The notes below the pieces were generated by a model. That model searched no databases. It was given only the letters and a program-made list of their open reading frames with translations, and had not been told where the DNA came from. Below, in pieces: positions 13,081-45,970 of a stretch of DNA of 45,970 bases. Within the stretch, counting starts at the first letter, position 1. The number at the start of each line of letters is the position of its first letter. The position numbers and the translations under genes were made by a program. The stretch is taken from the NCBI GenBank assembly GCA_036172245.1, contig JAYWIR010000006.1:5952001-5997970 (forward strand). The letters are read 5' to 3'. This DNA is from Raillietiella orientalis (lineage: Eukaryota).

Positions 13081-13084
13081 ACCG

Positions 13085-13183: not shown

Positions 13184-13192
13184 TATCGTCTG

Positions 13193-15574: not shown

Positions 15575-16574
15575 ATACTCGTTCACGAGCAGCCTATTTT
15601 GATCAGAGAGCATTTCGTCTATGGCCCAGCAATCATGAGAGAACACAAGAAAAAGCAGCACCACATGAGAAGAAACTGCATTGCTGTATGGAACGGACTG
15701 CAAATCACTCCTTAAGAGACCTGAGCGAACACAGCAGCGTTGCTCTCTTTGTGCCGGTGAAGCTTCACAGTAACGGCGAACACAGAACGAGTTTCTCTCC
15801 CTGTGAGCAGCAACTAGTTGGAAAGATGGAATGAAGATGGCAGATGGACCGAGTATTGGAATATCTCTGTGCATCGTTGTGTTAGAATTCCGTCTTATAG
15901 ATGCAGCTTCACTTGAGAAGGCCGGGCTGCATATCGAAGCCAGTAGAAACAAATCCTTCCCTTCCCCCAACGTGTTCAGCTGTGAAGCCATTTGCAAAAG
16001 GGACCATTTTTATGGAACCGATCTGGAAGGCTGATTATTCAGCGATTATTCAGCCTCCTTTGCTCATCAGCAAATTCCTATGGAGTCACGTGCCAACTAA
16101 CGCGGCAACAAATAAATAGAACCTGGACTGCTGAGACACCGAAATCACCCTGTGGATTCAACAAATGGTGATTCGATTCCCAGGATGGAGTGCATTAGAA
16201 TTGCCTTCGGCTATGAGTAAGTGCTCACGACCGAGACAGTCAGTAATCTGGACATCATCTCTCACCTGAAAAACCTTCCGTCCTCATGGAATACATACGC
16301 TTCTGAAATGCACGACCGACTCGCAGGACGGGGCGCGACCGGAGGGCTGGCAGGAAGCAAGGAGACATTGGCTTGGTGAACGGCTCCTCAACTTGCCGAC
16401 TCTGTCAGCTCAAAAGGAATTCTCTCGGGGGCACTTCCTAGGAAAAAACCATCAGAAGAAGTGAAGGGTCTCTGCGGAGTCTTTGAACAGCTCCGTGTAC
16501 TTCTCTTAAAGAGTCAAGACTCGGCGTTGCGACAACTGCAGGGGGCTGTCCTATGCTACGCACGTCGTCACTAC

Positions 16575-16810
16575 AGGGGGAGTGTGGCTCCAGACCGTGG
16601 CAAGTGCATTGAGAGGAAGGACAACCTTCCTGCACCTGGGACTAGGGTGTGCCTCCCTTTTCGTTCGGTCACGTCCCTGAACAAGACAACTCAGAGGGCA
16701 TTCCAAGACGCTTCTTCATGGGTCATCCGCGGCCACGATCATTGTTTCCGTGGAGTCGTGACAGTGAGAAATCACGACCCTGGAAGCCTGGATACAGGAA
16801 GGCCACCTTC
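16575..16810 (+). repeat. Unclassified repeat Y, copy 2
   Basis: Homologous to the reverse complement of 3870-4105. Confidence 0.8.
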
Positions 16811-22800: not shown

Positions 22801-23642
22801 AATATGATTGCTAAGCCTCAGATCATACTTGCATGCAAAATGTATAAAAATATGAAACCTCATGTACTTATTCCTGAAAAGATTAGTTTGCTCAAAGGTG
22901 TTTCATATGTACAATTGTCAATTCATAAAAGATTATTTCATTTGGACTAGCTTATACCTGTTTTTATGTGTATGCCCACGCTTGCAGTCATGCATACCTC
23001 CATTCCAAAGTAAAGAAATACTCTGCTGCAGCAAATGATTTCCTGAAAACATGTATGGTCTAGTGGACAGTGGAAAAGAGATTCATGAAAACTGTGTTTT
23101 TCAGGACTGTGTAGTTTTTTATCGATGGTGCAGTTTTGTTTTCCTTGAAGAGCATAGGGATAATGATGGGCAGTTGTCGTTATGTATTTGAAGTATTGCA
23201 ATTGCCATACAGATTCATTCCATATTGTTTCTGTAAATTCTAATTTTCATGACTTTGTCTTCAGTTGTTGTTGGTATTTCCTTTTCATGTATTTTCCACC
23301 AATGTCCTTGGGAAAACTGTAAGCCTTCTACTGCTGATGAACTTTTCCAGCATTTGTTTTCCCCAACATTGTCGCCATAAAATGCCTTGTTAATTTTTGA
23401 TGTAATCTTCAGAGTATGAAAAATAATCTACTTTGGAGCATATGGAGCAAGTGATCACTACCTTTTGAAGCAAGATTACATACAATGTGGTATTTTTCTG
23501 GTACTAGGGTCTTTGTTATATATTTTCTGCATATGAGTTTACAAGCTTGAGTATGAAACTTGTATCACAATTTAGAAGCAACTTTCACTTCAAGGAAACA
23601 TCAGGATTTTTTTTTTTTTCGCACATAGTTTAGTTAGCACTT

Positions 23643-23706
23643 TTTCCAGTCATGGAGGCCATCGTTCTGGATCCTCCAGCATGATGATGGTTTCCATGAC
23701 TGGGAA
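23643..23706 (+). ncRNA. Candidate pre-miRNA-like hairpin 1
   Basis: TTTCCAGTCATGGAGGCCATCGT pairs with ATGATGGTTTCCATGACTGGGAA at all 23 positions (4 G:U), with an inner CTGGA/TCCAG stem. Confidence 0.3.
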
Positions 23707-23926
23707 ATAGAAGATGAATTCGTTGTCGTTTCTGTTAGCGGGACCATTGTTGGGCGTAACCTCCAACCATCCTGGCATCCTGGTAGTATCTCTAGTTCTG
23801 GAAGTGGCTTTTTTTTGTTGCTGTGCTCTCTAGGTATGTTATTATGCTGTCTTGTGCTGCAGAATCCTTCTCTAGGGAATTTCCTGTTGTTCGAGGCCTA
23901 GTTTACTGCTTTTAAATTTCTTTTTT

Positions 23927-23984
23927 ACACTGGTCTTGTATGAGCCTCCCTCTGATCACTGAGAGGTTCATGTGAGACTGGTGT
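23927..23984 (+). ncRNA. Candidate pre-miRNA-like hairpin 2
   Basis: 23927-23948 pairs with 23963-23984 at all 22 positions (16 Watson-Crick, 6 G:U), with a 14-nt loop. Confidence 0.3.
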
Positions 23985-26099
23985 TTCAGTGACCAGTGTA
24001 TTTACCTTAATGAACACTTCTAGAGTAATAGTTCCAGTCAAGGTGGCTCGTACATCAGCTTCTATGCTGCAATGAAGGTTTCTTTGTGAATTCAAGGAAA
24101 GTGACTAATGATTCTGAACAATCACCAGCTCATGAAGTAACCAGCATGATAAAATGGCACAGCGTACTAATTTTGTGGCAGCATGCTTGAATGCTTAGAG
24201 TAGACTTGTGTGTTTGGCTTCAGTGATCATAAGCTTTAGCAGTATATGGTTTCGCTAAAAAGTTTTTACATTCAGAGTGCACTCAATTGCTTGCTTTATT
24301 TATGTGACTTAGTGAAACTTCAGTTTGTAATGGCCAGTGATGCTTATGTGAATATTCGAGACTACCTTGATGCTTATCTTAAGCAAATCAAGCTAATTGT
24401 TTTATTGGTGGAGTTTGTTAACCTGATAAATGAGCTTGTTTACCAGATACTGATAATTAGGCTACGTATAACAAAGTAGGTATTTATTATTCGGAGATTA
24501 GTGTTTGTTTCGAAGTGTTGAGTGCTCAGAAGTGGAAAAGTGCATTTATTATAGTGAGTTCTTAGTGTTCGTTCACCTGATGGCTTGTGCGAGAGGACTG
24601 CAAAAGCATGATCACAGGAGAGCATTTTCTAACACACATCTGCATGACAAGATGCTTTCAGGCAACAGAGAGTTTATTGTTTCTTCATGAATTTCTCTGT
24701 ATTCTTTTGTGAGTACTGTTCGTAACGGTAAAACTTTACCGATGAAGGTGGTGGCAGTAAATCCAAGTATGATTTTGCAAAAGATACTGTTACGGAAGGT
24801 CATCGAGAAATTATGGAGTTTCTCCTCACTAAAGGGGTTAATGCAAGAACTTTTTTCATAAAGAAATATTACTAACAACCTGAACATGCGTTTCGTGATT
24901 TTGTGAGAAACCAATTCCAAAGTGTCCGTTTATACTAACTCAGTATCAGAGATCCAGTTCAAACCTAAAGAAGTTTTGTGGATCATTTGTAGGCATCAAG
25001 GTGACAGCTTGTTGGGTGTGTAGACTTTCATAGGACCTTGTTTCACACTCCCTACCATATTGATTTATGAGCGAGCGTACCGCTCTTGTAATGCGGTTGC
25101 AGCTCCTTTTGGTACACAAAGCGTGTCATTATTTCAGACAACCAGGTATTGGCTGCCGTGGCGCCATTGGTGGAGACATGTCTTGAATTCTATTTTGGAA
25201 TTCATTAGTAAGTTACTTTTGCTGCTTCAACAGCTGTAGCCTTGTTATGAAAGCTTGTTTCTGAAATCATTCCCATTCCACGTAAAAATCTCAAATGTCG
25301 CAAGCAGTGAAGTCGCACTTTTGTGAGACATTCGTTTAGGAATGCGAATTTGCAGTTTCCATTTCTTATTTAAAAGTACTAAAAAGTTAAAAAGCACTGA
25401 GCTAAGCATAAGAGATCATCGAAGTTTATCAACTTGTTCATCAGACGGCTGTCTGCATTAAAAATTTTATTCCTTGTAAAAACTCATATCCAGAGCACAT
25501 TTGTTATGGATGCTGGATACGATGTTACGTTGCATGAAGAAAGTCAGATTACGAAGAAATTTAACGTAGTTTGCAACGTAGTGCTTTTGCATTTACAAAT
25601 GCGCCTCGATTGTCCCACGAGCTTTTTACTGTTTGAAACTTAAGCTGTTCGCCAAACGAGATTTGGCTTTCCATTTACTCTGGGTTTAAGACTTGATGTG
25701 CACCGAATGTTTTCCCAGGAAGCCCTTGTGATACGAAGAGAGATGTTCCGTCGGTATTGAGGAGAGCAGGTGGGCAAAGGTAATTCTGTGAATACTTTCA
25801 CGACTACATCTGCTAAGCGAAATTAATCAGCAGCATTATGTAAGAAAGCACAGTTTGCAGCAAGCCTTGGGTTCACTGTGATTTCCACCCGGATAATCCC
25901 GGGGCGTTTATTAAAAAACATTCCACAAACCCCAGGCCAGGTACCAGGCCCCACTAACGGCCACACAACGCCGGACCTGCCGGGACGCCAAGACGCAGCC
26001 CGACGTGGCTCTCCTCGGCAGTGGAAGGGATGGGGGAGAAAACAAAAAGAAAAATAAAAAGTAAGGAAAACAAAAAGTTGGAGGGCTGGGAAGGGATCA

Positions 26100-29000
26100 T
26101 TATGCACTGGGAGGAGGGCCCATCCTTCGAAGGAAGCCCTTTAAGTCCATTCGAATTGTACCCAGCTGGGGCCATCCAGAAGCTCTCGTCAGGAACCGAA
26201 CAGCATACGGGATGACGTCCCTCTCGTTCTGGTTCACATCTTCGCGGGTATCACTCCACGCCGCCACGATGCCACGGATGCAGCATAATGCTGCCACGGC
26301 TGCGGCTGGCTGCAGGGCATCCCGCACGAACAGAAGTCGGAAAACGCCTCTGGGCGCGCTGCCCGTAGGGAGCCCTAAGGTCGTCCCAAACCGTTCCCAC
26401 AGAGGTCGGAGGGCAGCACAGTCAACAAGAAGATGGGGAGCGATTCCCGCTCCCCACACCGGGCACACTCAGGATTTACTCTCCCCCGGGTCCAGTGGAA
26501 GCAGCGCGCGTTGCAGGGCACACCCCAATGCAACGTCAGCAGCGCCGACTCTTGCCACTTGAGGGGGAGAATCCTGGATCCAATTAAAACCGGGGGCCAC
26601 TTCAGGTCATCCGTTGGCATGCCGAGCAGCTCGCTCCATCTTGCAAGTCCTCGCGGGAGGGCACTCGGGGTCGTGGCATCCACCAGTTCTCGCGTGGTCC
26701 AACCGTTTAACATTCTCTCGTCCTGAGTTCCGGCAGGAGACTTGCCACTTCGGCGTCCGGCCGCTGGTAAGGACCCTATACAGAAAGGGCAGCGCCGTAG
26801 CTAAAGGGGTGGTCTCCGCCCACATGCTTCTGGCGGGACACAGCAAAGTGGACCGCAGAGTGCAGCAGGCGTTACTGCCGAATCGCAGGCGGTTCCAGTT
26901 TTCATCTCTGGTGTTGTTCAGCTTTGCCCACGTTCCAACGGTTTCCTCCAACCAGGCGGAGGAGTTGGCGGGGCTGCATGCTATCCAACCGTTCTCTCTC
27001 ACCAGGGCTTCCATGCGTCCGAGGAGGAGGCCGCATCTTCTAACTTTCCGGCAGCGGCACAGAAGATAGGACGCGAGCCCTTGCGTCCTGGAAACACGGC
27101 TGGCAAGGAGGTGGGCCGGAACGCACCAAGGGGTGTTCCACAACTTCGCTGCGATGGCCAGGGTGCGCCATCGCAGCTGGATCTACAAGCGCTCCAGCGT
27201 CAGGAGGCTGAGACCGCCGTCCCGACGAGGAGAGCTTATGTCTTTCAAATTCATTCGGGGCCTTCCGCTGTCCCAGAGGGCGATGCAGAGTAGGTCTTTA
27301 GTACGTTTTTTCAACTGGGTGGGGACGGGGCAAACAAAAAGCAGGAGGCGGAGGATGGGAGCCGCGAACGCGTTCCACACCGCGGCTCGTTCCGGCAGAA
27401 GGAACTTGCCTTCCAGGAACGGGCCGATTGCCAACTCTACCTTTTGGAGACGACCTGACCAGGCTTCTGCGAGGCAGAAGTCCCCCAACGGGACACCCAG
27501 GTACTTCAGGTACCTGTCCGCGGGGATCCCCAAGCGGATCCAGTCAGGCCGTCCGACCCACGTCGCACCCACCGGTACGACCGACGACTTCGCCTCGTTT
27601 ACCCGAAGTCCAGTCCCACGACTTAGCAGGTCGAAGAAATCCTCGACTGCGGCTGCCGGGGCGGACATGGGAAACATGAGCAGAAGGTCGTCGGCGTATG
27701 CTGCTACGGCGGGCGTGCCGGGGCACGAGCTGGGCAGGGCAGCCAAAGTCACCCTGTACGCTCTCAGCACCAACTCAAAGTAGGTGCTAAAGAGCAGGGG
27801 ATTGAGGCTATCGCCCTGCCGTATGCCCCGCCGCACCGGCACGCCGTACACCTGTTGGCTGGGAAAGCAGATGTTAAGGATGGCGTTGCGCCAGCAGAAG
27901 CGCAGGAAGGAGAGAAGGGAGGGTGGGAAGCCCATGCGACCCAGGAGCTCCAACAGTAGCTCCTGGTCAACGCAGTCGAACGCCTTATGGAGATCGACCG
28001 CGATCGCTACGGCCCCCTTCCCAGACCGGGTGTCCATTCCCAGCCCAGCTGGCGGCCCCAAAGTGGGGTTGCCAATCTTTCCGCCAGTTTCATTTAGGCA
28101 GCGCTGCACATGGAACCATGTGCTCGCGAAGAACAGGTTGGCATCCATACTTCGTCCGGGAACAGCGTATGTCTGCTCCGGGCTAATTATGGAGTCTGCC
28201 ACCTGTCCTAGACGCGAAGCCCACAGTCCAGCGACCAGCTTGGCGTCCGTATTCACAATTGTGATCGGACGCCAGTTGCCTAGGGATCTCAGGCCTCCTC
28301 CCTTTGGGAGGAGCCTCACACGGGCTGACCGAAACGAGGCGGGAACGTCGCCTTCGTCTCGGATCAGCCCGGTCAACTGGAGCACCAGGGGGGCAGCTCT
28401 GTCGCGAAGCATTGAAAAAATTCCGTAGGCAGGCCGTCCTCCCCTGGCGCCTTACGCCTCTTGAGCCTTTTAATACCGGCGAGAATTTCACCGGTAGAAA
28501 AAGGCTCGTCGAGGCTGATCCTCTCCTCCTCCCCTATTGCCGGGGCTCCGTCCGGAAGCAGGAGTCGCGATGCGTCCCGCTCTGGGGGTGCCCTAGCGTA
28601 GAGGGAGGGATAGTAATGGCGCACGAGGTGCCTGATCGCAGGTGAGGCCGATGGCTCCCGGCCCTGGTCGTCCAGCAAGCTGGCCGACCCGGATTGCCAG
28701 GCTTGGCGCTCGGCCCCGGCTCGATATTCGGCCAGGCGACGGACATTGGGGGTCCTCTCGTACCGGCGGGCCTGTAAATAGGCCCTATGGTTCCGAGCCC
28801 CCTCCCCAAATCCGGGGAGCAGGCGGTGCAGGAGGAACTCCTCGCAGAACTCGCGGACCGAGGCCTTGAAGAGGTCCCAATCTTTGAGACTGCGGAGGGT
28901 GACGCCTCTCAGGAATTCGCGAAGGTGTTCCTTCGCAACTGAGAGCCGCGTCCAGTCCCCAGGCAACCGCCACGCCCTGGCCAGGGGTCCTTTATCGCGC

Positions 29001-29686
29001 GGGCATACCGCGGCGATTAACCTGGAATGGTCCGACAGCGTCGACGCAACTTTTCCCAGTTTGCCGACCCGCGAGCACAGGTCGACACCCAGGAAGAAGT
29101 GGTGGATGCTGCGGTCCATTCCCTCCGCGTCCGCCAACAAGTTGCGCGTGCGCATGGCAGCGCACAACTCGTTGGCCGTGCGTTCTTGTGCTTCGTGCTC
29201 ACCTGACAGCAGACGGAGATTAAAGTCCCCAGCTATCAGGTGTGCCTTCCGCACGTTCGTATCGGCCATCCAGTCGCGCTTCAGGGTTTCCAGCAACCTG
29301 GTACGGTCGCTGTATCCCCCTTTCCCGCTTGGGGCGTACACGTTCGTGACGATCAATTCGATCGAGGCGGACCAGCTGAGAGCCAGCTGACCGACCCGAC
29401 CGTCGTTATCGAAGCGTACGCCCTTCACGGCAGCGTCGATGGCCGGTTTCACGAAGAACGCGACCCCGCAAGTGTTGCGGAGGCCGCACCGCCAATACAG
29501 TCGACCCCCCGCGATCGCCTCGATCTCCTGGACGTCTGCCTAGGTGATCACGTGGATCTCCTGCAGCAGGGCCAGCTCGAGCTCACGCAGGGTGTCGGCC
29601 GTATCTCGCCTGTTACCGTCGTCGCGCAGCCCGTTGACGTTCCAACAGGCGGCCCGAATCCGACGGCGACTGGCGAGACCAGGTGT
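26100..29686 (-). pseudogene. Copy A ORF2: APE endonuclease, reverse transcriptase and zinc finger
   Basis: Motifs WNVNGL, LQEIH, NVYAP, AGDFN, SDH, KAPGEDG, WRPI, DLHKAFD, RQGDSL, YADD, KYLG and CPVW/CGE..PHL..C. Stop near 29540 and several frameshifts. Confidence 0.92.
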
Positions 29687-31437
29687 TACTCCTGGGAAGA
29701 TGGCGATGCGGCGTCCGCCACCTGTTGGGGCGGGACGCTAGGTGGAGGAGGAGGGTCAGGTGCTGCGTGCACCTGGTCCCCCTCCCCCATGGGTAACGGC
29801 GCGTCGAGCGGGTCACCCTCAGGTGGGGTCGCGCCTACCTGTTGGCCCTCCTCCATTGGGGTGGGCTGTTCAGGCTCGGCGACTGCAGGGAGGACTTCGC
29901 CCTCCTGCTCACCCTCCTCCATGGGGGTGGCCGGCTCGACGGCTTCCGAGCGTGGGAGTTTCCCTCCGGGATTCCCACGCTACCGCTAGCTTCCTGCTTC
30001 TCCTCCTCGCTCGTGGAGGGGAGGCGCCTCCTCGGCTTTTGGGACTTGCGTCCCGACTTCCTGGGGGTGCCTCCGAGGAGGAGGATGCACTTCCGGCCCC
30101 CAGGTCCGACTCACCTGTGGGGGCCTTTTTCGCGGGAGCCGGCCTTCGCACGGCCTTGCGTGAGGGGTTCTCACGCTCCGCCAGCGTGGCCGCGAGCTCC
30201 TCCGCCGCCTTTGGGAACGCGGCGTCCTCGGTTTCCACCGGCGCGTCGCGCGGCTCACCCTCTGTTTGCACAGAGGGTTCGCCGTCACGAACTTCGGGCG
30301 CGACGGAAACGGCGAGGGGAGGCTCGTCGCCCCGGGTGGCATCTTCCGGAACGACGATCCGTTCCAGTGCCACCGTGAACTCGCGTACGGTTTTCGAACG
30401 TGGTCCGGTTTTTTTTTCCTTACCGGCCGGCTTCTCTTCTTTTTTAAAGGAGCTTTTCTCTCTTTTCTGGCTGCTACAAGTTGCCATCCCTCTTCACCTT
30501 CCGCCTCTTGGTTAGTTTTATCCTCCGCCTGCTTTTGTTTGCAAGTCCTTTCTTTTGGAGTTTGAGGATCTGGCAACCTCAGCCGGCCAGCGTCCGCCTT
30601 AGGTCTTGTGACCTTTAGTGCGCGTTTCCCCTGCGCCTTTTTCGCGGCAGGAGGAACCGGGGTGGGGCGTTTTGGGCACACACGTCGAACGTGGCCCTCC
30701 TCCCCGCACATGTGGCATTGGATGTTAGGACACCTCTTGCGAAGGTGTCCTACGGTATCGCAGTAGCCGCAATACCGGGGCTTTCCCACGTACCAGGGGT
30801 CCACGCTCTCTTGCGCGACCTCCAGCTTGTGGGGGAGCCCACAGTCCTTATTCACGGTTACCCGCGCTGCAGCCTGGCCTCCGAAATGGCTATTGAAGCC
30901 TTTGAAGATTGTTGGCTTAGGCCATAGCGTGTGCACCTCGCCGAACTTCTGTAGTTCTTGTGCTACCGCAGAGCGAGTCATACGGTTCGTTATTCCAGTG
31001 AGATGGACCACTACGGAGCGGTCCATCGTCACCGGCAAGATCTTGCGGCCGTCGACGTTCAACGGGTTGGTGATTAGAGTCTGAGCCAAGGTGATCTGCT
31101 TGCACACCACCTCGACTCGCTGACCTCCGCTGAGAACGGACAAACCGTCTAGATCTTGTTCGTTTACTCCGGCGTTTTGCAGCGCTTTCGAAAACGCGCG
31201 TGCCGTTTTTCCATCAAATAAGGGGCCTACCTGGTATACCAAGCTGGGCTTGTACCCAGCTGCCCGGTAGGCCGCCATCTCCGTTACGGTTTCCGCGCTC
31301 GGCGCGGCCACCATGGCGCTCCAGCTCCTCGCCTTGGGCGGCAAGGGCGATTCCGGGGCGGACGCCCCTGATTCTGTAGGCTGTGGAGGTGGGCAAGCCT
31401 CCCCCACACCTACCTCCATCGTGGTGTCCTCAGGCAT
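29686..31437 (-). pseudogene. Copy A ORF1: gag-like nucleic-acid-binding protein with two CCHC knuckles
   Basis: Reads CGYCDTVGHLRKRC and CHMCGEEGHVRRVC. The start (GCGATGCCTGA) is conserved with copies C and G. Frameshifts near 30420 and 29985. Confidence 0.88.
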
Positions 31438-31533
31438 CGCTGACATCGGACACCAACGATGTTCCACACGAACACACACAAAGTGAAAAGCGCTTTCTGT
31501 CGACTCACTCGGGAGCGAAGAAGAAACACGTCC

Positions 31534-34436
31534 TTCCGTAACGAAAGAGCGTCCTTGTATGGCCGTCGTTACGCGAGGACCCCCAATGTCCGTCGCCTGG
31601 CAGAGTACCGAGCCGGGGCCGAACGTCAAGCCTGGCAATCCGGATCGGCCAGCTTGCTGGACGACCAGGTCCGGGAGCACTCGGCTCCGGCTAGAATACG
31701 GCACCTCGTACGGCGTTTTTATTCCTCCCTTTACGCCAGGGCGCTCCCGGACCAAGATACATCTCGGTGCTTGCTTCCGAACGGTGCCCCGGCAATAGGG
31801 GAGGAGGAGAAGGAAAGCCTCGACGAGCATTTTACCACCGGCGAAATTCTCGCCGGTATCAAAAGGCTCAAGAGGCGGAAAGCACCAGGGGAGGACGGCC
31901 TGCCTGCGGAGTTTTTTCAATGCTTCGCGGCAGAGTTGGCACCCCTGGTGCTCCAGTTGACCGGGCTGATCCGAGACGAAGGCGACGTTCCCGCCTCGTT
32001 TCGGTCAGCCAGAGTGAGGCTCGTTCCGAAAGGAGGAGACCTCAGGAAACTCATCAACTGGCGTCCGATCACAATTGTGAACACGGACGCCAAGTTGATC
32101 GCCGGACTGTGGACTTCGCTTCTGGGGCAGGTGGCCAATTCCATAATTAGCCCGGAGCAGACTTACGCTGTTCCCGGGCGAAGTATGGAGGCCAACCTCT
32201 TCTTCGCGAGCACATGGTTTCATGTGCAGAGTAGTGAAGAAAAGGAAGAAGGAAGGATTGGCAGCCCCGCTTTGGGGGCGTCAGCCGGGCAGGGACAGGA
32301 CTCCCAGGTGGGGAAGGGAGCCCTAGCGATCGCAGTCGATCTGCACAAAGCGTTTGACTGCTTGGACCAGGATCTCCTGCTGGAGCTCCTGGGACGCATG
32401 GGCTTCCCTCCCTCCCTACTGACCTACCTGCGCTCTTGCTGGCGCAGCGCGCTGATCAATATCTCTTTCAGAGGTCAAATGGCGTACGGCGTGCCGGTAC
32501 GGCGGGGCATACGGCAGGGCGACAGCCTCAGTCCCCTGCTCTTTAGCACCTACTTTGAGTTGGTGCTGAGAGCGTACAGGGTGACTTTGGCCCCCTTGCC
32601 GAGCTCGTGCCCCGGCACGCCCGCCGTAGCATCATACGCCGACGATCTTTTGCTTCTGTTGCCGATGTCAACCCCGGCGAAGGCGGTCGGGGATTTCTTC
32701 GATCTGCTTAGCCGCGTGACCGGACTTACGGTGAACAGGGCGTAGTCGACGGTGGTTCCAGTCGGTGCGGCTTGGGCTGGGCAGCAGGACTGGGTCCGCT
32801 TGGGGATCCCCACGGCGAGGTGCTTGAAGTACCTTGGTGTGCCGTTGGGGGACTACTCCCCTGCGGAAGCGTGGTCTGGCTGCCTCCAAAAAGTGGAAAC
32901 GGCGATCGGCCCGTTCTTGGAAGACAAGTTTCTCCTTCCGGAACAAGCCGCGGTATGGAACGCGTTCGCGGCTCCTATCCTCCGCCCCCTGCTTTTTGTT
33001 TGCCCCGTCCCCAGAGAGTTGAAAAAACGGACTAAGGACCTCCTGAGAATTGCCCTTTGGGGAAGAGGGAGGCCTCGATTCCCGTTGAAGGACTTGTGTG
33101 CTCCACGTCGGGATGGCGGTCTCGGCCTCTTGACGATGGAGCGAGTAGAGATTCAGCTGCGGTTGCGAACCCTCGCCATCGCAGCGAAGGTATGGAGCAC
33201 TTCTTGGTGCGTCCCGGCCCGACTCCTTGCCAGCCGTGTATCCGGAACGGAGGGTCTCGCGTCCTATCTTCTCTGCCGTGGCAGGAAGATCAAGAGATGC
33301 GGAGTTCTCCTGGGACGCATGGCAACTCTGGCTAAGGAAAACGGCTGGATGGTATGCAGCCCCGCCAACTCCTCCGCATGGCTGGAGGAGACAGCTGGCA
33401 CGTAAGCGAAGAATAATGAAAAAAATGAATAGATATGGAACTGCCTGCGACGCGGCGCCTGTTCCTGCTGCACTCTGCGGAAGATACTCCAGTGTCCCGC
33501 GAGGAGCACGTGGGCAGAGACAACCCCCCTAGCTACGGCGATGCCCTTCCTGAGGAGGGCGCTCTCCAGCAGCCGCAAGCCTAGGTGGCAAGTCTCCTGC
33601 CGCGTCGCAGGCAAGGAGAAGTTGATCAGCGGCTGGTCCACGGGTGAACTGCGAAAGGCAGTACCCCTAGTGTCCAGCCGAGAAGACTTCAGAGATAGGG
33701 CGATCTACTCGGCATACAGCCGGATGACCTGAAGTGGCCCCCGGTATTAATTGGATCTAGGATCCTCCCCCTGCAGTGGCAGGAGTCGGCGCTTCTGTTG
33801 TTGCATTGGGGTCTACCCTGCAACGCGCGCCGCCACCACTGGACCAGGGGTCGAGTAGATCCTACCTGCAACAGGTGTGCGGAACGGGAAACTCTCCCCC
33901 ACCTCCTTGTTGATTGTGCTGCCCTCCGATCCCTGTGGGAACGTCTTCGTCCCTCCCTACGGATCCAGGAGGGCAGCCAGCCCAGAGACGTTTTTCGGCT
34001 TCTGTGCGTGCATGATGCCCTGCGTCCAGCCGCTACCCTGGCTGCACTTTGCTGCGTACGCGGGATTGTGACGTGCTGGAGCAACGTCGGAAGACCGAGC
34101 CACGACAGGGATGCCGTCGTACTTGCAGTCCGCTACCTGCGGATTGTGACCAGATGGCCCCACCTGGGTATTGTACGGACGGACCTCGAGGGCATCCTAA
34201 GGAGGATGGACCCTCCTCCCAGTGGTCAGTGATCCCTCCCTAACCCTCCCAAATTTTTTTTTGTTTTGATGTTTTATTTTTCTTTTTGTTTTTTCTTCCA
34301 CCCCCTTCCGCTGCCGAGGAGAGTCGCGCCGGTCTGCGTAACGGCGACCCGGCAGGTCCAGTTGAGTTGGCCGTAGTGGGGCCTCGTACCACGAATCAAA
34401 GAGAATTTTTAATAAACGCCCCGGCGTGACCGGGTG
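31534..34436 (+). mobile_element. Copy B: 5'-truncated Tx1-like element (ORF2 from RNERA to the 3' end)
   Basis: RT motifs WRPI, KAFD, QGDSL, YADD and KYLG; zinc finger; stops at 32743 and 33403; terminus AATAAACGCCCCGGCGTGACCGGGTG. Confidence 0.93.
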
Positions 34437-37400
34437 GCAACTATCAACTTGTAATCCGCATGCACTATTGTGATGGGACGCCAGTTGTTAATGCTCCTCA
34501 GATCTCCTCCCTTAGGGAGAAGCCGCACAATTTGCCGAACGAAACGAGGCAGGAACGTTACCTTTTTCGCGTATCAGCAAGATGAGTTGATGTACCAGGG
34601 GGGTTAGCTCAGGCGCGAAAGTTTGATAAAACTCCGTTCACGGGCCGTCCTCCCCTGAAGCCTTGCGCCTCTTGAGCTTTCCGATGGCCGAGATGATCTC
34701 GCCCATCGTGAAAGGCTCGTCAAGGGGCTTTTTCTCCTCTTCCCCGATCCCACGACCGCCTTCCGGAAGCAGGAGTCGTGAGAAATCCCGCTCGGCAGGC
34801 GTTCTTGCGTACAGTGAGGAGTAAAAACGTCGCAGCAGACCGCGAATCTGAGCGGGTGTTGAATGCTCCTGGCCCTGATCTCCCAAGAAGCTGGCCGATC
34901 CTGACTGCCAGGCTTGCCTCTCGGCTCCCGCTTTGTATTCCAGGAGCCTGCGGATGTCGGGGGTCCTGGCGTAACGGCGAGCATGCAGATAGGCTCGTTC
35001 GTTACGTACCCCGTCCCCAAATTCCGCAGGTAGGCGGTGTAGAGGGAACTGGTCGCAGAACTCCTGAACCGACCGTTTGAAGCTGTCCCATTCCTGGAGT
35101 GTCTGCATCCTGAAGCTCCGTATAAATGTGTTGAGATGTTCCGTGGCGCCCGAGAGCTTCAGACAGTCCCCTGGCAAACGCCACGCTGACGAGGGGGGCC
35201 CCTGTCGCGCGGATGGATTTCAATCACGATTGGTCGATGGTCGGACAACTCGTACGGTAACTTCCAGCGCTTGCCCACACGAGTGCACAGGTGCTCGTGA
35301 AGGAATACGTGATCGAGGTTGTCCTCCATCCCTGGTACACTGCCAACAAATTGCAAGTGTGCACCGCCATGCACACCTCGTTGACCAAGTCCCGCTCGTA
35401 ATTCGGCCCATCCGGTTTCAGACCAGCGTTAAAATCGCCCGCAACCAGATGGGCATTCCGCACGCCTGCCTCGGTCAACCAGTCGCCTAGGGGGGCAAGG
35501 AAAAATTCTTTCCTGGCCCTCCTGTTCGTCAGGTCTTCTCCGCTCGGGGCGTAAACGTTCGTGACGATCAGGTCGATCGAGTCGGACCAACTGAGATTCA
35601 GCGGTCTGACACGACCGTGATCGTCGAACCGCACTCCACGGGCAGCGGCCTCGATGGCGTGCCTATGCAGGTAGGCGACACCACAACTTCTCGATGTTCC
35701 ACACCGATACCACAGCCGCCCTCCTGAGATGCGTTCGATTTCCTGCGCTTGTTCTGCAGAGATCACATGGATCTCCTGCAGCAGCACAAGGTCAAACGAT
35801 CCTAGAATGGCGGCCATGTCTCGTCTCCTCCCGGCGTCTGTCATGCCTTTCACGTTTCAAACGGCGATGCGCAGACGATGGCGGGAGGAGATACACGGCA
35901 TTACTGCCGGGAAGATGACGGTGTGGGGGAACCCGTCTCTTCCGAGGCGGGTGAGATGACCATTAGGGTTTCGGACTCCTCGGGCACTTTGGGTACCTTT
36001 CCGGCTTCAACCCTCTCCATCTCCTCCGTGTCTGTGCGTGGTGGTCTCTCGGGTGACGATTCCCGGGATTCTCCCACGCTCATTGCACCCTCGCATTGGG
36101 AAGTGAACACCACGCCTTCGACCTGGAGAGGGGCTTTCCGGGGTTTGCTGGACTTCCTTCCAGCCTTCCGGCTGGGTGCCGCGGAGATGGAAACTTGGTT
36201 TCCGGCCTGCGCTTCGGGGTCGGAAGTTACCGACTCCTCGGTGGAGGCCGGACGCCTCACTGCCTTTTTGCCAGCCTTGGAGGATTCTGGCTGCAACGAT
36301 GCAGCCAGCTTCTCCGCCGCACGCTCGAAGGCGGCGTCATCGATCACGGTCTCGATGACGGACGCTTCCGCCGGTTCGCTCCCCATGCTGTTGACATTTT
36401 CAACAGTTGGTTGCTCGTCGGTAGCAGCCATTTCTACCTTGCGGCGTTCGGCGGAGACGCGTTCCACGACGACGCTGCATTCTTTTAAATTCTCGCTAAC
36501 CTGCTGTTTTTTATTTTGGTAGGCGAGCTTTTCTTCAATTCCTCGTTCTTTCTTCGACTTTTTCTTTTTCGCTGTAGCTTCTTGCCATTCCGACACCTGA
36601 CCGCTTTTGTCGATCTTTTCGGCATTCGTTACCGGGGTGTCGGCTGACGCCTGGACCACGGGAGTGGGTGGCACAGCTTGAGCGGCAGCCTTCGCCGCCA
36701 GTTTTTTCTGTAGCAGCCGCGCGCGTTTTTTGAGGTTCCTCGCGGAAACCACGCGCACAGCCGATTGTGGACACACTTCCTTCGTGTGAGCCATTGTCCA
36801 GCATACCAGGCACTGTACGTTGGGGCACCTCCTTTTGAGGTGTCCCGACGTGTTGCAGAAGCCACAGTATTTGGGCTTCCCACGTAGCAGTGGTCGACGC
36901 TTTCTCCGCCGACCACCAGTTTGTGGGGAAGGGTAGAGCCCTTCCGAACGGTTACACGGGCAGCCGTGAGGCCGCTCTGAACTGTGGTATAGTCCTCGAA
37001 AGGACTAGGCTTGTTCCATACTGCATGGACCGTGCGTTCTTTTCCCAACGCGGCGCTTAACTGTTCTTTCCGCATCCGCGCGGTAACTCCTAAAAGGTGG
37101 ACCACCATACTGTGGTCCGCCGTAACGGGAAGGAGCCTGCGTGTCCCCATTACCACGGGGGTTTTAAGCAGACGTTGGGCCAGATCTGCATGTTTGCAGA
37201 TTACCTCTACGTACTGCCCCCCGCTACGAATGGTCATAGCGCAGAGCTCCTCCTCTTTAACATCGAGAGCGCGCATCCCCTTCGAAAAGGCGCGCGTACT
37301 CTCAGAAGAATACAAATTTCCTACCTTGTAGAATAGTGCTGGGTTATACCCCTCTTCCACATAGGCAGATAATTCCGCCGCGGCTGCAGGCGATGGCGCC

Positions 37401-37708
37401 GACACGACGGCGCTCCACGCCCGCGCTGCAGCGGGGACCGGTTTTGTGGGGGCGGACGCCCCCACCTCCTTCGCCACTGAAGGCGACGTTGCCGCCGCCT
37501 CCTGGCACTCCACCTTCTCTAGAGGCGACGTTGCCGCCTCCACCTGGCACTCCATTTCTTCAGGAGGCGACGTTGCCACCGCCCTTGACTCGTACCGGTG
37601 GTCGCGTCAGGCATTGCTGCCTGATCTACCACCACCACAAACGAAGCCTACACCTAGGGACGTTTCCCGGCACGAGGAGCACCGAGGAAACACGTCCGCT
37701 CTAGCCGA
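34437..37708 (-). mobile_element. Copy C: 5' part of a Tx1-like element (ORF1 37614-35901; ORF2 from 35901, cut after WRPITIVHADYKLIVA)
   Basis: Leader GGACGTGTTTCCTCGG, CCHC knuckles (frameshifted), TAATG junction, endonuclease motifs LQEIH/NVYAP/AGDFN/SDH. Confidence 0.92.
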
Positions 37709-39850
37709 CGTAAAGCGTTCGACTACGTCGACTAGGAGCTCCTTCTGGAGGTCCTGGAACGCTTGGGATTTCCGGCCGTCTTCCTAGCCTACCTGCGCTC
37801 CTGCTGGTGCTTCGCGCTCATGAAGATCAATTTCAGCGGCCGGCACGTGTTCAACGTGCCGGTTCGTCGTTGCATCCGGCAGGGTGACAGCCTCAGCCCC
37901 CCGCTCTTCAGCATCTACTTTGAGTTGGTGCAGAGAGCATACAGGGAGACTTTGGCAACTCTGCCGAGCTCGTTTCCCGGCACGCCTCCCGTGTCGGCCT
38001 ATGCCGACGATCTTCTGCTCCTGCTTCCCGGGTCCACCCCGGCATCGGCGCTCGAGGATTTCTTCGAGTTGCTATACCGTGGGACAGGCCTCCAGGTAAA
38101 CAGGACGAAGTGGTCGTTGCTTCTCACCGACTCGACGAGGGCCGGACGGTCGCACTGGATCCGCTTGGGGATCACCACGGGCCGGTACATCAAGTACCTT
38201 GGCGTTCCATTGGGGGACTTCTGCTCTGCAGAAGCCTGGTCCGACCGTCTACAAAAAGTGGAGCTGGCGATCGGCCCGTTCCGGGACGGCAAGGTTCAAT
38301 TGCAGGAACGGGCCACGGTATGGAACGCTTTCACGACCCCCCTCCTTCGCCCCTTTCTTTTTGTGTGCCCTATCCCGTACCAATTCAGGACACGGACTAG
38401 GGGCCTTATACAGAAAGCCCTCTGGGGCAACCGGAGGCCCCGCGTCCGGCTCAAAGACTTTGGCGCTCCACGCAGGGACGGTGGACTTGGTCTACTGACG
38501 TTGGAGAGCATGGAGCGACAGCTCCAATTCAGAAAACTTGCCCTTGTGGCAAAGTTTTGGACAGCACCCTGGTGAGCACCGGCAGGACTCCTTGCTCACA
38601 GGGCAACCGGTTGCTTCGGATTGACTTCAATCCTGGTAGCCAACGAACGCAGCCTAAACCATTGTGGTTATCAGCAGCGGGATTTGTTCTCCCTTCTGAG
38701 AGACAACCCTTGGATCTTCTGCATCCCAGCGAACTGGAGTACCTGGCTTCAGAAGTCCGTTTCCGCATGGGCGAAGATCAATGGCACCAGCGATGAGAAC
38801 TTCTCCTGCCTCCGCAGAGGGAGGCACGCTGGTCAACCACTCCAGGAGATCGTTTACAGCCCAGGGAAACTTCTGTGGGCTTCCTTCACCCCCTTGCCTC
38901 AGTGCTGCGCTCCCTCAGGGAAGTTCGGGACAGCTACCAACAGGCATCGTGGGAAGTGTCCTGTCTCATCGGAAGCAGGAAAAAATCACTGAAGGCGTGG
39001 ACGCCGAGGGAACTAGCGGACGCTAGTACCCCGAGTGTACCGCCGTACGGACTTTTACGCTGGGGCGCGCTGCTCGGTATACCTCCGGAGGAGGTGAAGT
39101 GGCCCCCAGCGTCATGGGACAACGGTACCCTTCCCCTGCAGTGGCAGGAGACGGCGTTGCTTCTGCTCCACTTGGGACTTTTAAGCAGAGCACGCCTATC
39201 TCACTGGACAACGGGGAATGTGGATGCTAGTTGTGCAGAGTGCGAGGAAAGGGAGACCATCCCTCACTTGATTCTGGAGTGTGTTGCCCTCCGCAAAATG
39301 TGGGACAGAATCTCGTAGTTTCTCAGCATTCCGGAGGGTGACCCAAAAAATTTATTCAGACGCCTACTGACGCGAGACGGCTTGCCAGCCTCCGGGAGTG
39401 TAGCAGTGCTCTGCTGCATACGCGGTATCCTGGAGAAGTGGACCGCGTCTAGGAGAGGAAGGACCAGCCGGAATGCCATCCACTGGGCAGCGATCTACTT
39501 GGAGAAAGCGTGCCGTTGCGCCGACTTCAAAAACATTTGCCGGCACTTGTTCGCATCCGAAACCGGATGCTAAGACCTGCACACGGCGCACCGTGATCCC
39601 CTCCCTCCCTCCCCCTCCTTAAAAACATTTCCCTCCAGGCGTTTTTTTTTTTTGTTTTGTTTTCTGTTTATTTTCCCCGTCCAGGCGCCAGTGAAGGACT
39701 TCATCGGCCTACGGGTCGAAAAAGACAAGTGCTACGGAACTTCAATGAACGTCTGACGTCCGAAAAAGAAAAATTTTAAAAACATCGACCTTATTACAAA
39801 ATTTTGTGATGTCAAAATTTTAGTAATAAAAGCCCCGGCTTACCCGGGTG
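37709..39850 (+). mobile_element. Copy D: 5'-truncated divergent Tx1-like element (from RKAFD to the 3' end)
   Basis: Motifs QGDSL, YADD, KYLG and CAECEERETIPHLILEC; distinct 3' UTR; terminus AATAAAAGCCCCGGCTTACCCGGGTG. Confidence 0.92.
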
Positions 39851-39869
39851 AAAAACCTGCGCCAATGCC

Positions 39870-42470
39870 GCACGCGTTTTTGGTCAGCTCCCGTGAGCGA
39901 CGCCAAAACTAGGTGTTGTGTGGATTTCAAGTGCGGCCGTTGGAAGGCAGAAATGCCTTAAGACGCCGCAGTAACTGCGTCGGGAGACGTGAGACCCACG
40001 TCTCCCCAACCTATGAAAGTGGGGTCATGGCCCACCACAAAATTAGCACCCGCCACCCTGGCGAGGGCGTGGAACAAGGTGACCGCGGCTGCTCCGCCGG
40101 ACGTGGCCGCCGAAGTGCAGGCCTACATAAAGGAGGGCTTCATCCCTGCCCTCCTTTACAAGGTAGGAAACCTATATTCTCCGCTTACAACGCGGAAATT
40201 TGGAAACGCCATCCGTAGGATGGGAATCTCTGACTAGGAGATACTTTGCTTCTCGATTCAGAGCGGCGGGCAGTTCGCGGAGCTGATCTGCGGAGATGCA
40301 GCGCTCACACACAAACTGCTCTGCACAACCGTTCCGTTCGAAGGGCGGAATCTCCTCCCACACACGGTGGATCACTCTATGGTGGTCCATCTCACGGGTA
40401 CAACGGTGCGGATGACCGATGAAGCCATCCGCACTGAAATCAACAAGTTCGCGGAGATATACGCGATGTGGTCAAAGCCCGACGCCTTTACTTATCGAGG
40501 CGCATTCAGTGGGCGAGTGGCTGCACGCGTAACTCTCCGCGAAAACAAAGAACTTCCCCACAAGCTTGAAGTCAACGACGAGCTCGTCGACCTCTGGCAC
40601 GTGGGGAAGGAAAAATACTGTGGGCTGTGCAACACATTCGGGCATCTTAAAAAGAGATGCCCGGATGCCACATGCCCAACCTGCGGAGCGAAGGGCCACA
40701 CTAGTGCTGTGTGCCCGAAAACCGCCGCGACAACGCCTTCTGCCCCTTCGACAAACGAGGGGAAGAAGGCAAAATTTAAAGCAAAGAGCGATGGAAAGCC
40801 GACTTCAGAAGAAGTCGTGCACAAGGAGCAGGAGCCTCAAAAGGAGACTTCTGATACAAATGCCGACGAGGTAGGCTGGAAAATCGTCTCCGGCAAAAAA
40901 CCCAAACAAATTAAAAACTAAACAAAAAAATTCCCCACAAAAAACTCAAAAAATCAGAACGCGAGCGTTTCGAAAAAACCCGCGGTCGGCAAACCAAAAA
41001 TTCCGCGGCGCGAGTGCATAAAGGAATGCCGCGTTACAATCGAGCGCGTTCCGTCGATCGAGCGTCGATCGGCGAACGCGACTCCCGCAACCGTCGCGAA
41101 CGCCGCCGAACCGCCGCAGGAATCCTGCGACAAACACGCGAGCAGCAGCGACGAGAAAAACTTCGCGAAGGCGGCGGAGGAACTCGCGGCCACTTTAATG
41201 CAGCCGCCTAAGGCTGCAAAGAAGGCCGTCAGACGTCCGGCGGAAGTTAAGGGCTTGGAAACTTCCGGGTCCGAGGCGGAAACCGGGAACCCTCCCTCCG
41301 TCGCCCTTCCGAAGAGGAAGGCGGTCCGGAAGTCGCGCAACCCTATGCGCGTCGCTCCCCCTCAGGCTGAGGAGGAGGAGATGCGCTCGGATAGCGAGGA
41401 GGCGATGTCCGCGAGGTCGCGGGATCCCTCCATCGACAGCATCCGGTCGGTCCTTCCTATCGACCTCAGTCCGGCTGCAGACGTTCCGGTCGTTGCCGAA
41501 ACGCCACCACCGCAGATGGACAACGACCAGCCGCCTCCCGAACAGGAGGCGGCAATACACACGCCACCACCATCACTAGTATGATGCGTGGAATCGCCTC
41601 TTGCATGCAGCTGCGTATAGCCTGTTGGAGTGCCAACGGGCTGCGTAGCGAAAGCAAGAGGCTTAGCGTGGCCGACAACCTGCGACCTTTCGATCTGGCA
41701 CTTCTTGAAGAGGTGCATGCCCTCAGAGCAGAGGACGTCCAGGAAATCGAGAGGCTCACAGGGGGGAGGCTACTTTGGCGTGGTGGAGGAGACCACTCCC
41801 GCGGAGTGGCCTTTCTGCTGAAGACGGCCGTCGCCAATGCGGTGCGCAGTGCACAGTTCGACGAGGAAGGTCGAGTAGGACAACTTGTCCTTAAGTGTTC
41901 CGAATCGATCGACCTCGTAGTCACGAACCTGTACGTGCCCTGCACCAGCCACAGTCGCGCAGAACGCACTGCGTTCTTCGAAGCCCTGCGGCGAGACTGG
42001 CTGGCCGGAGCAGGCGTGCGGCGGGCGCATCTGATAGCGGGAGACTTCAACGTCCGCCTGCTGTCGGAAGCGCCCGACATACAAGCACAATTGGGCAACG
42101 AGTTATGTGCGGCTATGAACACACGCAACTTGTTGGCCGATGAAGCCGGAGCGAGAAGCAGAATCGACCACGTGTTCCTCGATAACCACTTGTGTACGCG
42201 GGTGGGGACTCAAGGAGCAAATGCGTCGGAGCTGTCCGATCACCCTAGGCTAGTGATCAACATTCACCCGCGCGACAGAGGTCCACCCTCCGAAGCGTGG
42301 CGCCTGCCGGGGGACTGGTTGCGACTCGCTGGAGCGCGCGAACATCTGCGCGCATTCCTGCGTAGTTGCGAACTGCAGACTCTCGCTGACTGGGACAAAA
42401 TAAAACGCTCAGTCCGAGACTTCTGTGACCAGTTTCCCCTCCATCAACTTCCTCCAGGTTTGGGCGATGC
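39870..42470 (+). mobile_element. Copy E: 5' part of a Tx1-like element (ORF1 39953-41584 disrupted; ORF2 endonuclease 41584-42470)
   Basis: Reads CGLCNTFGHLKKRC and CPTCGAKGHTSAVC; TGATG junction; LEEVH, NLYVP, AGDFN, SRIDH, SDH; cut after GLGDA. Confidence 0.92.
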
Positions 42471-44583
42471 CACCCGGATACGCCGGGACGTTTATTAAAA
42501 ACATTTCAACGGTCAATACAGAACGTGATACAAGGCCCCACTGACGGCCAAGTAATACCGGAACTGCCGGGACACCGGGACGCAGCCCGGTGTGGCTCTC
42601 CACGGTATTGGAGGGGGATGGGGGAGAAAACGAAAATAAAATAAAAGAGAAAAACAAGGCACAAAAAAGAGTTTGGAGGGCCGGGAAGGGATCACAGAAG
42701 ACTGCTGGGAGCGCCCATCCTTTGCAGGATGCCTTCTTGTTCCATTTTCAGTTTTCCTAGATTGGGCCATCGGGTAGCTCTCTGTAGGAAGCGAGAAGCA
42801 TACTCGATGACGTCCCTCACGATGCAGTCTTCATCTTCGGCATCACTCCAGGCCGCCAAGATACCACGAATGCAGCAAAGTGCTGCCAGGGCTGCGGCTG
42901 GACTGAGGGCGTCCCGTACGAAGACAAGACTGAAGACACATCCAACATTGCTACCATCCGGTATCCGGAGAACCGTTTTCAGACGATCCCATAGAATCTG
43001 GACGGTAGGGCATTCAACTAAGAGGTAGGGGAACGACTCCCGCTCCCCACACCTGGCACACGCAGGATTTACTCTTCCCCGCGTCCTGTGGAAACGGCGC
43101 TCGTTGCAGGGTAGATCCCAATGCAGCCACAGAAGCGCCGATTCTTGCTACTTCAGAAGAAGAATCCTGGATCCAAGCGGAAACGGGCGCCACTTCAGGT
43201 CATCCAATCGAATTCCGAGCAGCTCGCTCCATCTTCTTAATCCACGCGGCTGGAGAGTAGGGGTCGTTGCATCTGTCAACTCTCCCATGGTCCAGCCGCT
43301 CATCAACTTCTCTCTGCCTGCGATACGGCAGCAGACTTGCCACCTAGGCTTCCGGCTTTCGTGAAGCGCCCTTTGGAGGAAGGGCATCGCCGTAACAAGG
43401 GGTGTGCCTTCCGCCCACGTGCAACTCGGTAGAAATTCAAGAATTTCACGGAGAGTTCGGCGGGCGTAAAAGCCGACTCGCAGGCAGTTCATCCGGTCTT
43501 CGCACCTGTGGTTCTGCTTGGCCCAGGTGCCAGCAGTCTCTTCCAGCCAAGCGGAGGAGTTGGCAGGGCCACAAACCATCCAGTCGTTCTCCTTTGTTTG
43601 GGTTGCCATGCGGCCGAGCAGTAGACCGCATCTTCGAATCTTCCGGCCAGGGCACAGAAGAAACGATGCGAGTCCTTCGCGGCATGACACACGCCTGGCC
43701 AGGAGGCGGGCCGGAATGCACCAAGCGGTGCTTCACATCTTCGCTGCGATGGCGAGGGTCCGCCATCGCAGCTGGATTTCCACGCGCTCCAGCGTCAGGA
43801 TGCTGAGACCGCCGTCCCGACGCGGAGCGCACAAGTCCTTCAAAGGGACTCGGGGCCTCCCCTTGCCCCAAAGAGCTATGCGGAGGAGGTCCTTCGTCCT
43901 CTTCTTCGATTCCACGGGGGCGGGGCCAACAAATAGCAAGGGGCGGAGGATGGAGGCCGCGAAGGCGTTCCAAACCGCGGCCCGTTCCGGCAAGTGAAAC
44001 TTGCCTTCCAGGAACGGGCGATCGCCGTCTCGACTTTTTGGAGGCTGCTGGACCACGATTCCGCAGGAGATAATTCCTCCAACGGCACACCAAGGTACTT
44101 AAAGCACCTCGCCGTGGGGATCCCCAGACGGACCCAGTCCTGCTGCCCTGCCCACGCCGCACCCATTGGCACAACCGACGACTTCGCCCTGTTAACCTGC
44201 AGTCCGGTCCCGCGGCTGAGCAGATCGAAGAAGTCTCCGACCGCCTTTGCCGGGGTGGACATTGGCAACAAGAGCAGAAGATCGTCGGCGTACGCTGCTA
44301 CGGCGGGCGTGCCGGGCTACGAGCTCGGCAATGGGGCCAAGGTCACCCTGTACGCTCGCAGCACCAGCTCAAAGTAGGTGCTGAAGAGCAGGGTGCTGAG
44401 GCTATCTCCCTGCCTTATGCCCCGCCGCACCGGCACGCTATACACCTTGTGTCCACTGAAAGAGACGGTAATCATCGCATTCCGCCAGCAAGAGCGCAGG
44501 TAGGAAATCAGGGAGGGTGGGAAGCCCATGCGAACCAGGAGCTTCAAGAGGAGTTCCTGGTCTACACAGTCGAATGCCTTGCG
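42471..44583 (-). mobile_element. Copy F: 5'-truncated Tx1-like element (from RKAFD to the 3' end)
   Basis: Motifs QGDSL, YADD and KYLG; B-like C-terminus; terminus AATAAACGTCCCGGCGTATCCGGGTG. Confidence 0.92.
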
Positions 44584-45970
44584 TGCTGCAGGGTGGACGT
44601 GTTTTCTCGGTGCTCCTCGTGCGAGGAAGTCTCCCCCAGTGCAAGCGTCGTATGGTTCGGTGGTCGATCAGGCAGCGATGCCTGACGCGACCACCAGGGA
44701 TGGCCAGGGGGCAGCGGCAACGCCGCCCCCAGAGGCGATGGAGAGCCAGGGGGCGGCGGCAACGTCGCCCTCGAAGGCGATGGAGGTGGGGGCATCCGCC
44801 CCCACAGAATCGGTCCCCGCTGCAGCGCGGGCGTGGAGCGGCGTTGTGTCGGCGCCATCGCCTGCAGCCGCGGCGAAATTGTCGGCCTATGTAGAGGACG
44901 GGTACAACCCCTCATTATTCTACAAGGTAGGCAATTTATATTCTTTAGAAAGTGCGGGCGCCTTCTCGAAGGGCATGCGTGCTCTCGATGTGAAAGAGGA
45001 GGAGCTCAGCGCTATGACCATCCGCAGAGGAAGTCAGTACGTTGAGGTGATCTGCAAACAAGCAGAGCTGGCACAGCGACGGCTTAAAACCCCCTTGGTG
45101 ATGGGGACGCGCAGGCTCCTCCCTATTATGGCGGACCGCAGCATGGTGGTCCACCTGTTAAGTGTTACCGCGCGGATGCGCAAGGAACAGGTTCGCGCCG
45201 CGTTGGAGAAATACGGAACGGTCCACGCGCAGTGGACGAAAGTTAGTCCTTTCGAAGACTACACGGGGCTGCAACACGGCCTCACTGCTGCGCGCGTGAC
45301 CGTTCGAGGGGGCTGCACTCTTCCCCACAAACTGGTGGTCGAAGGCGAAACCGTCGACCTCTGGTATGTGGGGAAGCCGAAATACTGTGGCTTCTGCAAT
45401 GCGTCGGGCCTCCTCAAAAAGAGGTGTCCCAATGTGCAGTGCCAAGTATGCGGCACAATGGGCCGCACGAAGGAGGTGTGCCCAAAAGCAGCAGTGCGGG
45501 TGGTTTCCAAGAGAAACCTTAAAAAACGCGCCCGGCTTCTGCAGAAAAGGCTGGCGGCAAAAGCTGCCGCGAAGGCTGTTCCAACCGCGCCCAAGACCCA
45601 GGCCGCACCCGAGACCCCGGCGACCAGCGCCGAAAAAGTTGAGGGAGCCGGCCAGGAGACTGGGTGGCAAGTGGCAACGGCCAAAAAAACAAAGAAGGAG
45701 AGGAGGATGGAAAAGAAAATCGCCTACCAACAGAAGAAGAATGAGCAGGGAAGAGCGATAATTAAAGAGTGCAGCGTCGTTGTCGAACGCGTTCTCGCTC
45801 CCCTCTGTTGACACTGTCAATAGCGAGGGGAGCGAGCCGGCGGCGGCGTCCGTCATCGACACCACCATCGATGACGTAGCCTTCGCGCGAGCCGCGGAGG
45901 AGCTGGTAGCTTCGTTGCAGCCAGAACCCTCCAAGGCTGGCAAGAAGGCCGTAAGGCGTCCGGCCTCCCC
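44584..45970 (+). mobile_element. Copy G: 5' end and ORF1 (ATG 44678) of a Tx1-like element, continuing beyond the window
   Basis: Leader GGACGTGTTTTCTCGG. ORF1 closely resembles copy C; the knuckle histidines are substituted (CGFCNASGLLKKRC, CQVCGTMGRTKEVC). Frameshift near 45800. Confidence 0.9.

Follow-up and report, generated by a model that had tools for sequence, protein, structure and literature searches.

Introduction

Several LINEs with an APE-type endonuclease are target-specific, among them the Tx1 group, R1, and TRAS/SART. A different route to unusual arrangements is L1 twin priming (5′ inversion), in which an inverted 5′ segment adjoins a direct 3′ segment. Clusters of LINEs that nest within one another are already known, and nested transposons are likewise known to show hotspots and an orientation bias. 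The Zepp and Zepp-like L1-clade LINEs of green algae are described as GC-rich, self-targeting elements that form clusters of nested, mostly 5′-truncated copies (PMC3446292, PMC8226300), these clusters being tandem arrays of 3′ ends (PMC8226300). For human insertions of one transposable element into another, a further report describes hotspots and an orientation bias, for which its authors invoke the distribution of endonuclease sites, and gives an approximately 2.2-fold bias towards the sense orientation for L1 inserted into L1 (PMC2836564).

Here we describe a 45,970-nucleotide stretch of DNA from Raillietiella orientalis (the window, to which all positions refer) in which members of one LINE family lie nested within each other. 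The locus resembles Zepp, as so described, in that a GC-rich L1-type LINE has entered its own older copies and formed nested clusters. It differs in that all nests are antisense, full-length copies are nested, and the 3′ end forms a hairpin followed by short A-rich tails; the two are likened by behaviour, not by kinship. With the human insertions, it shares a concentration of nested insertions at hotspots and an orientation bias, but here the bias is antisense rather than sense, and a candidate nick-site motif does not account for it. A full-text literature search, a weak negative with subscription papers mostly outside its reach, found no antisense-only self-nesting LINE. On balance, and with confidence only somewhat better than even, we favour the reading that a single GC-rich L1-group LINE built the two nests of this locus, by ordinary nesting with a preference for the antisense orientation and for hot regions, and with no fixed target sequence.

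Results

The element family

Over its rightmost 20 kb, the window has a G+C content of 57–63%, compared to 33–43% in the DNA farther left, and this part is made up of seven copies (A–G) of a single non-LTR retrotransposon family. Copy A (25886–31533, minus strand, 5648 bp) served as the ruler, with the element coordinate of window position w defined as e = 31533 − w + 1. The map rests on self-blastn, tblastx of copy A against the window, and nhmmer profiles, and all three agree on the order. Observed/expected CpG ratios are 0.87–1.15 in the seven copies (25886–45970) and 0.61 in the AT-rich flank (16000–25885, 38% G+C); the elements, unlike their surroundings, are without CpG depletion.

Copy A is full-length and carries a putative CCHC-type ORF1, an APE endonuclease, a reverse transcriptase (RT), and a putative C-terminal zinc domain. 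Its ORF1 has 515 open codons, and its ORF2 is spread over several frames in tblastx. ORF1 has two candidate CCHC-type knuckles, with CX2CX4HX4C motifs seen in ORF1 translations; the Pfam zf-CCHC score in ORF1 falls just under the cut-off (19.4 versus 20.8 bits), and the zf-RVT match at the C terminus of ORF2 is weak (19.4 bits; cut-off 27.5). Matches to Exo_endo_phos in copies C (6.5e-10) and E (3e-11) place an APE-type endonuclease at the N terminus of ORF2; the corresponding match in copy A is weak (0.0026, below cut-off), and the nearest solved structure for this domain is APEX1 (8.6e-4). RVT_1 was found in copies A, B, and D, and the RT is nearest to human L1 ORF2p (5e-22), with R2-type proteins at 2.6e-14.

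The intact 5′ terminus reads GGACGTGTTT, and all three exact matches to GACGTGTTT in the window (3/3) fall at junctions with an intact 5′ end. The intact 3′ terminus consists of AATAAA and a short hairpin ending in ..CCGGGTG, which is followed by an A-rich tail of 0–6 nt and not by a long poly(A). Because of its domains, the likeness of its RT to human L1 ORF2p, and its termini, the family appears to be an L1-group (L1/Tx1) LINE, the RT comparison resolving no finer than the L1 group.

A protein search returned 17 matches, with a single close relative (P0001, 68% identity). The named matches were hypothetical proteins at most 29% identical, one aphid match carrying domain labels only, and no LINE clade was named among them. 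An atlas search yielded nothing beyond generic RT clusters, and Rfam gave 0 matches. Scanning metagenomes with a degenerate 3′-end motif recovered 40 loci, 0/40 of which matched either family profile; these loci are chance matches. One sequencing run, X1, contained 8% of the sampled words, and 711 of its contigs matched at 80% likeness, including 21 at no less than 99% and 72 at 95–99%. The X1 contigs show that the family is multi-copy, and most of their joints are hops between paralogues.

A complete nest in the left part of the window

The nhmmer profiles revealed further family fragments at 4898–8327, which together form a three-level doll, HL{IK{J}}, in which host halves flank each insert and coordinates are contiguous. 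The outermost host, HL, is represented on the plus strand by its left half H (4898–5367, positions 1281–1768 of the 3′-region profile) and its right half L (~7952–8327, with its 3′ end at 8327). Between them lies copy IK on the minus strand: its 3′ part I (5368–5752) has an intact 3′ hairpin end at 5368 adjoining H, and its 5′-ward part K spans ~6975–7978, the start being approximate. Inside IK, and antisense to it, sits the 5′-truncated copy J (5756–6961, plus strand, 3′ end at 6961). Both nests of this cluster are antisense. Target-site duplications (TSDs), looked for in these simple nests, took the form of TSD-like repeats: for HL, a 20-nt repeat between the end of H and the start of L is equal at 17/20 positions, and for IK, the end of K (AATGGCTCTGTGAT) and the start of I (AAAGGCGCTGTGGT) are equal at 11/14. 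Inserts thus lie within older family copies with host halves on both sides, as in Zepp-like self-nesting, and since the doll is complete, with both halves of each host and TSD-like repeats, ordinary nested insertion is the process that built it.

The left part of the window also contains a second repeat of ~330–420 bp (333–663, minus strand; 4221–4636 and 14122–14505, plus strand). It always lies 115–260 bp upstream, in element orientation, of a 3′-region fragment of the LINE (P at 6–109, H at 4898, and N at 14620). Its ORFs have no Pfam match; one possibility is an element, non-autonomous or highly divergent, that has the tail of the LINE in common. At 13049–14068, the minus strand carries an IS110/IS116-type transposase fragment (Transposase_20, 9.5e-09), and the plus strand carries an NADH-dehydrogenase 20-kDa-subunit-like piece and a TPR repeat in one open frame; these pieces are probably pseudogene or mobile-element debris.

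The right array

In the right array, copy A (e5648→1) is the innermost insert of a first series, its 3′ end lying against AT-rich non-family DNA and its 5′ end against copy B. We interpret copy B (31534–34436, plus strand, e2735→5648) as the right-hand remainder of a host into which A was inserted. The 3′ end of B in turn adjoins copy C (34437–37708, minus strand, e3307→1) and cuts it at the start of the RT. Copy D (37709–39850, plus strand, from e~3530/3547 in the RT KAFD region to e5648) is read as the right half of the host that C split. A second series begins at 39851 with a 19-nt spacer (39851–39869), which separates the 3′ end of D from the point at which copy E begins to align with the 5′ ends of A, C, and G. 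With this spacer, copy E extends to 42470 (plus strand, e1→2734) and is taken as the left-hand remainder of a host interrupted by copy F (42471–44583, minus strand, e5648→~3536/3548). Copy F, inserted into E, is itself split by copy G (44584–45970, plus strand, from e1), which comprises a 5′ end and ORF1, is the innermost copy visible in this series, and runs off the window.

The sequence-only reading that preceded this work had described five antisense junctions (31533, 34436, 37708, 42470, and 44583) at which an intact terminus meets a broken opposite-strand copy, and we recovered each of them within a few bases. It had also named D/E as the sole tail-to-head contact; this contact lies at 39850/39851, and this only same-strand contact of the array is an adjacency across the 19-nt spacer. 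Its statement that the broken partner is always cut in the linker or RT region proved true of the five right-array junctions, where the cut sites are e2734/5 (between endonuclease and RT), e3307 (RT start), and ~e3530–3548 (RT KAFD motif), but not of 2 of the 7 nests: J into IK and IK into HL cut the C-terminal/3′ region.

The nesting order likewise agrees with an alternating Russian-doll array, but only in part. A|B|C|D supplies only the right side of a doll with four levels, D{C{B{A}}}. The left halves that nesting predicts for B, C, and D are missing from the window: a profile of e1–3547 has no match left of 25886, and the 16-mer left of A, the candidate TSD of the A-containing unit, has no second occurrence within the window. 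E{F{G follows the same grammar as the left cluster and represents the left side of a doll that is cut off by the window's end. Given the missing left halves, one further event at or inside A is needed. Two A-type copies may have recombined ectopically or been joined in the assembly; alternatively, the event may have been an insertion-mediated deletion, or a read-through transcript that ended at the 3′ end of A may have been retro-copied.

Divergence among the copies

Nei–Gojobori comparisons gave Ks of 0.45–1.78 and Ka/Ks of 0.14–0.55 in 13/13 pairs. In a frame control covering five pairs, pN/pS was 0.36–0.63 in frame versus 0.79–1.46 in the two shifted frames. From these two results, most of the divergence arose in functional lineages, the copies not being decayed duplicates of each other; they are diverged lineages kept under purifying selection, which upholds the earlier description of them as separate subfamilies. 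The copies group as {A,B,F} and {C,G}, with D and E each alone. Over e3548–4347, A and B are 82% identical (Ks 0.57, Ka/Ks 0.33), F is 84% identical to B and 80% to A, and D and F are 71–75% identical; D falls outside A/B/F, with an identity of 74%. C and G are 79–84% identical (Ks 0.57), and Ks is 1.08 for both A–E and D–F. The hosts and inserts of the nests are different lineages.

The lowest Ka/Ks of the 13 pairs, 0.14 over 166 codons, was found between B (31537–32034) and C (34509–35006). This stretch, unusually conserved across lineages, lies between the endonuclease and the RT, just downstream of the cut site at e2734/5, and it could act, next to that site, as a functional element of the protein or of the RNA.

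Several arrangements of shared ancestry were considered. That E and B are the two halves of one host is unlikely, Ks being 1.08 for A–E versus 0.57 for A–B; E and B as halves of a single mosaic element is possible. A tandem 16.6-kb unit (A through E, then F) is out, A and F being 76–80% identical with a signature of selection. An ancestral composite, C|D = G|F, that was duplicated later is also out: Ks is higher for D–F (1.08) than for C–G (0.57), and we reject it further because both of these pairs are under selection too and F groups with A and B.

The same divergence bears on whether the head-to-head pairs (A|B, C|D, and F|G) each arose in a single event, by convergent twin-priming-like priming, by inversion, or by misassembly. 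Such an origin would fit the fact that each 5′ end faces a 5′-truncated copy on the opposite strand, and the 3′ end of A in unrelated DNA has the look expected of a priming site. However, A and B differ by 18% over e3548–4347 and carry a signature of selection, and therefore were not copied from one RNA; nor are their coordinates contiguous, as those of twin-primed arms from one RNA would be, since the two overlap over e2735–5648. At 65–84% identity, the arms also exclude palindromic assembly artefacts. Unlike the products of L1 twin priming, the arms here are different lineages, and the left cluster, which has the same grammar, consists of true nests in which each insert is flanked by the two halves of its host and by TSD-like repeats. 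We consider single-event pairs very improbable.

Orientation and position of the nested insertions

Returning to ordinary nesting, all seven nested insertions in the window (7/7) are antisense to their hosts, for which a one-sided binomial gives 0.008 by our arithmetic, the window having been picked for the pattern. Two regions were each struck twice. At e2734/5, copy E ends (e2734) and copy B begins (e2735); the inserts, F and A, belong to one group (A/F), and E and B, into which they went, come from separate lineages, with Ks to A of 1.08 and 0.57, respectively. At ~e3530–3548, copies D and F both begin at the RT KAFD motif, and their breaks each face the 5′ end of a C/G-group insert (C and G). 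A single blastn HSP spans both KAFD junctions, and the host break points coincide or lie ~10 nt apart, depending on the reading of 13–16 nt at the joint. The hits in each hot region are independent events; for the KAFD hits, this is indicated by the fact that D and F are not closest relatives (D–F 71–75%, F–B 84%, F–A 80%). By our arithmetic, ~0.15 event pairs within ~20 nt would be expected among 21 pairs on a 5.6-kb element, and two disjoint ones were seen.

These figures count against chance as the explanation, that is, against a transposon graveyard under weak selection in which the run of orientations and the coincident breaks reflect luck and the choice of window: an antisense run with a probability of 0.008 and two disjoint pairs where ~0.15 are expected would both have to be accidents. 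The sample is small, though, and the window is repeat-rich throughout, with family fragments M, N, O, and P in addition to other repeats, so we regard chance as rather doubtful but give it some weight. The preference for the antisense orientation and for hot regions is apparently real; with seven events in one window, it is a lead and not a result. One X1 contig joint, which runs from the 3′ end of B (34436) through 10 letters to 35744 in the antisense copy C, would add an eighth antisense nest, at a further site; its shorter side has only 23 letters, and we treat it as a lead only.

Search for a fixed target sequence

The flanks of eight 3′ junctions (A, B, D, F, I, J, L, and N) are unrelated, with no common target sequence among them. 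The only 10-mer shared between 3′ junctions is that of A and J. This sequence, CTGTGATTTC, has two exact occurrences in the window (25876–25885, plus strand; 6963–6972, minus strand), both of which sit directly at the 3′ junctions of these copies, and an X1 contig joint has a similar tail (AGAAAT..). Some lineages may add it as a templated tail, or the two junctions may share a micro-target. T-runs at the junctions are insert tails, and the A-rich tails are not host sequence where a TSD partner permits the check (I and J). A candidate nick-site motif, G[GA]TTT, occurs 36 times on antisense strands and 20 times on sense strands; being commoner on the antisense strands, it cannot explain the antisense bias.

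The family is also present outside itself: the 3′ end of A is embedded in non-family DNA, as are HL, M, N, O, and P, and B, which belongs to the group of A and F, was inserted at e3307 and not at e2734. The locus resembles the target-specific APE-type LINEs in its endonuclease and in the recurrent positions within a repeated target, but differs from them in having no conserved target at independent 3′ junctions, several sites, and insertions outside the family. Of the earlier proposal that the family's own ORF2 in antisense is the target, what stands is that the element's own relatives are hit, in antisense in 7/7 cases; a common sequence at the 3′ junctions is lacking, and non-family sites are used too. 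Judged from the junctions, the preference does not appear to be recognition of a fixed target sequence.

The same observations weigh on homing, by which lineages would recognise sites in the ORF2 of their rivals, in antisense, with the A/F group directed to e2734/5 and the C/G group to KAFD, and a relative disabled each time. The coincidence of e2734 and e2735 in hosts of different lineages, with inserts of one group, speaks for homing, as does the finding that C and G, of one group (79–84% identical), meet their hosts, the unrelated D and F, in the same part of the RT, with one blastn HSP across both junctions. Against it, B went to e3307 in spite of its kinship with A and F, the 3′ end of A lies in AT-rich non-family DNA, and the flanks of the 3′ junctions share no sequence. 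Each site has just two events, and the 5′ junctions facing D and F may be ~10 nt apart, given the ambiguous 13–16 nt at the joint. We therefore think homing unlikely. The form that it might take, with the A/F group homing to the endonuclease–RT linker and the C/G group to KAFD, pairing of element RNA with resident copies as a possible guide, and the displaced sense strand as primer, is a similarly speculative proposal to which we give little credence.

Discussion

Under the reading that we favour, ordinary nesting with an antisense and hot-region preference, the locus would have been built by target-primed reverse transcription, with several co-active, diverged lineages inserting into older copies of the family. 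In each nest, the sense strand of the host would have served as the primer, which would leave the new copy antisense to its host. In every nest, the 3′ junction shows the host sense strand passing directly into the first-strand cDNA of the insert. The preference itself could arise if the two strands of resident copies differ in accessibility or in how readily they are nicked, for instance where the sense strand is displaced in copies that are transcribed or form R-loops. Better survival of inverted than of direct nests may contribute.

If it is a true feature of this family that insertion is exclusively antisense and returns to particular coding regions of rival lineages, this would indicate targeting by something other than the sequence preference of the endonuclease. 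Such a targeting principle, if true, might involve, for example, strand access, R-loops, or RNA guidance, and would bear on the competition of co-existing LINE lineages. Should homing, which we consider unlikely, turn out to be true, each insertion would both disable a competitor and make inverted repeats, and the locus would be an instance of inter-lineage warfare among retrotransposons.
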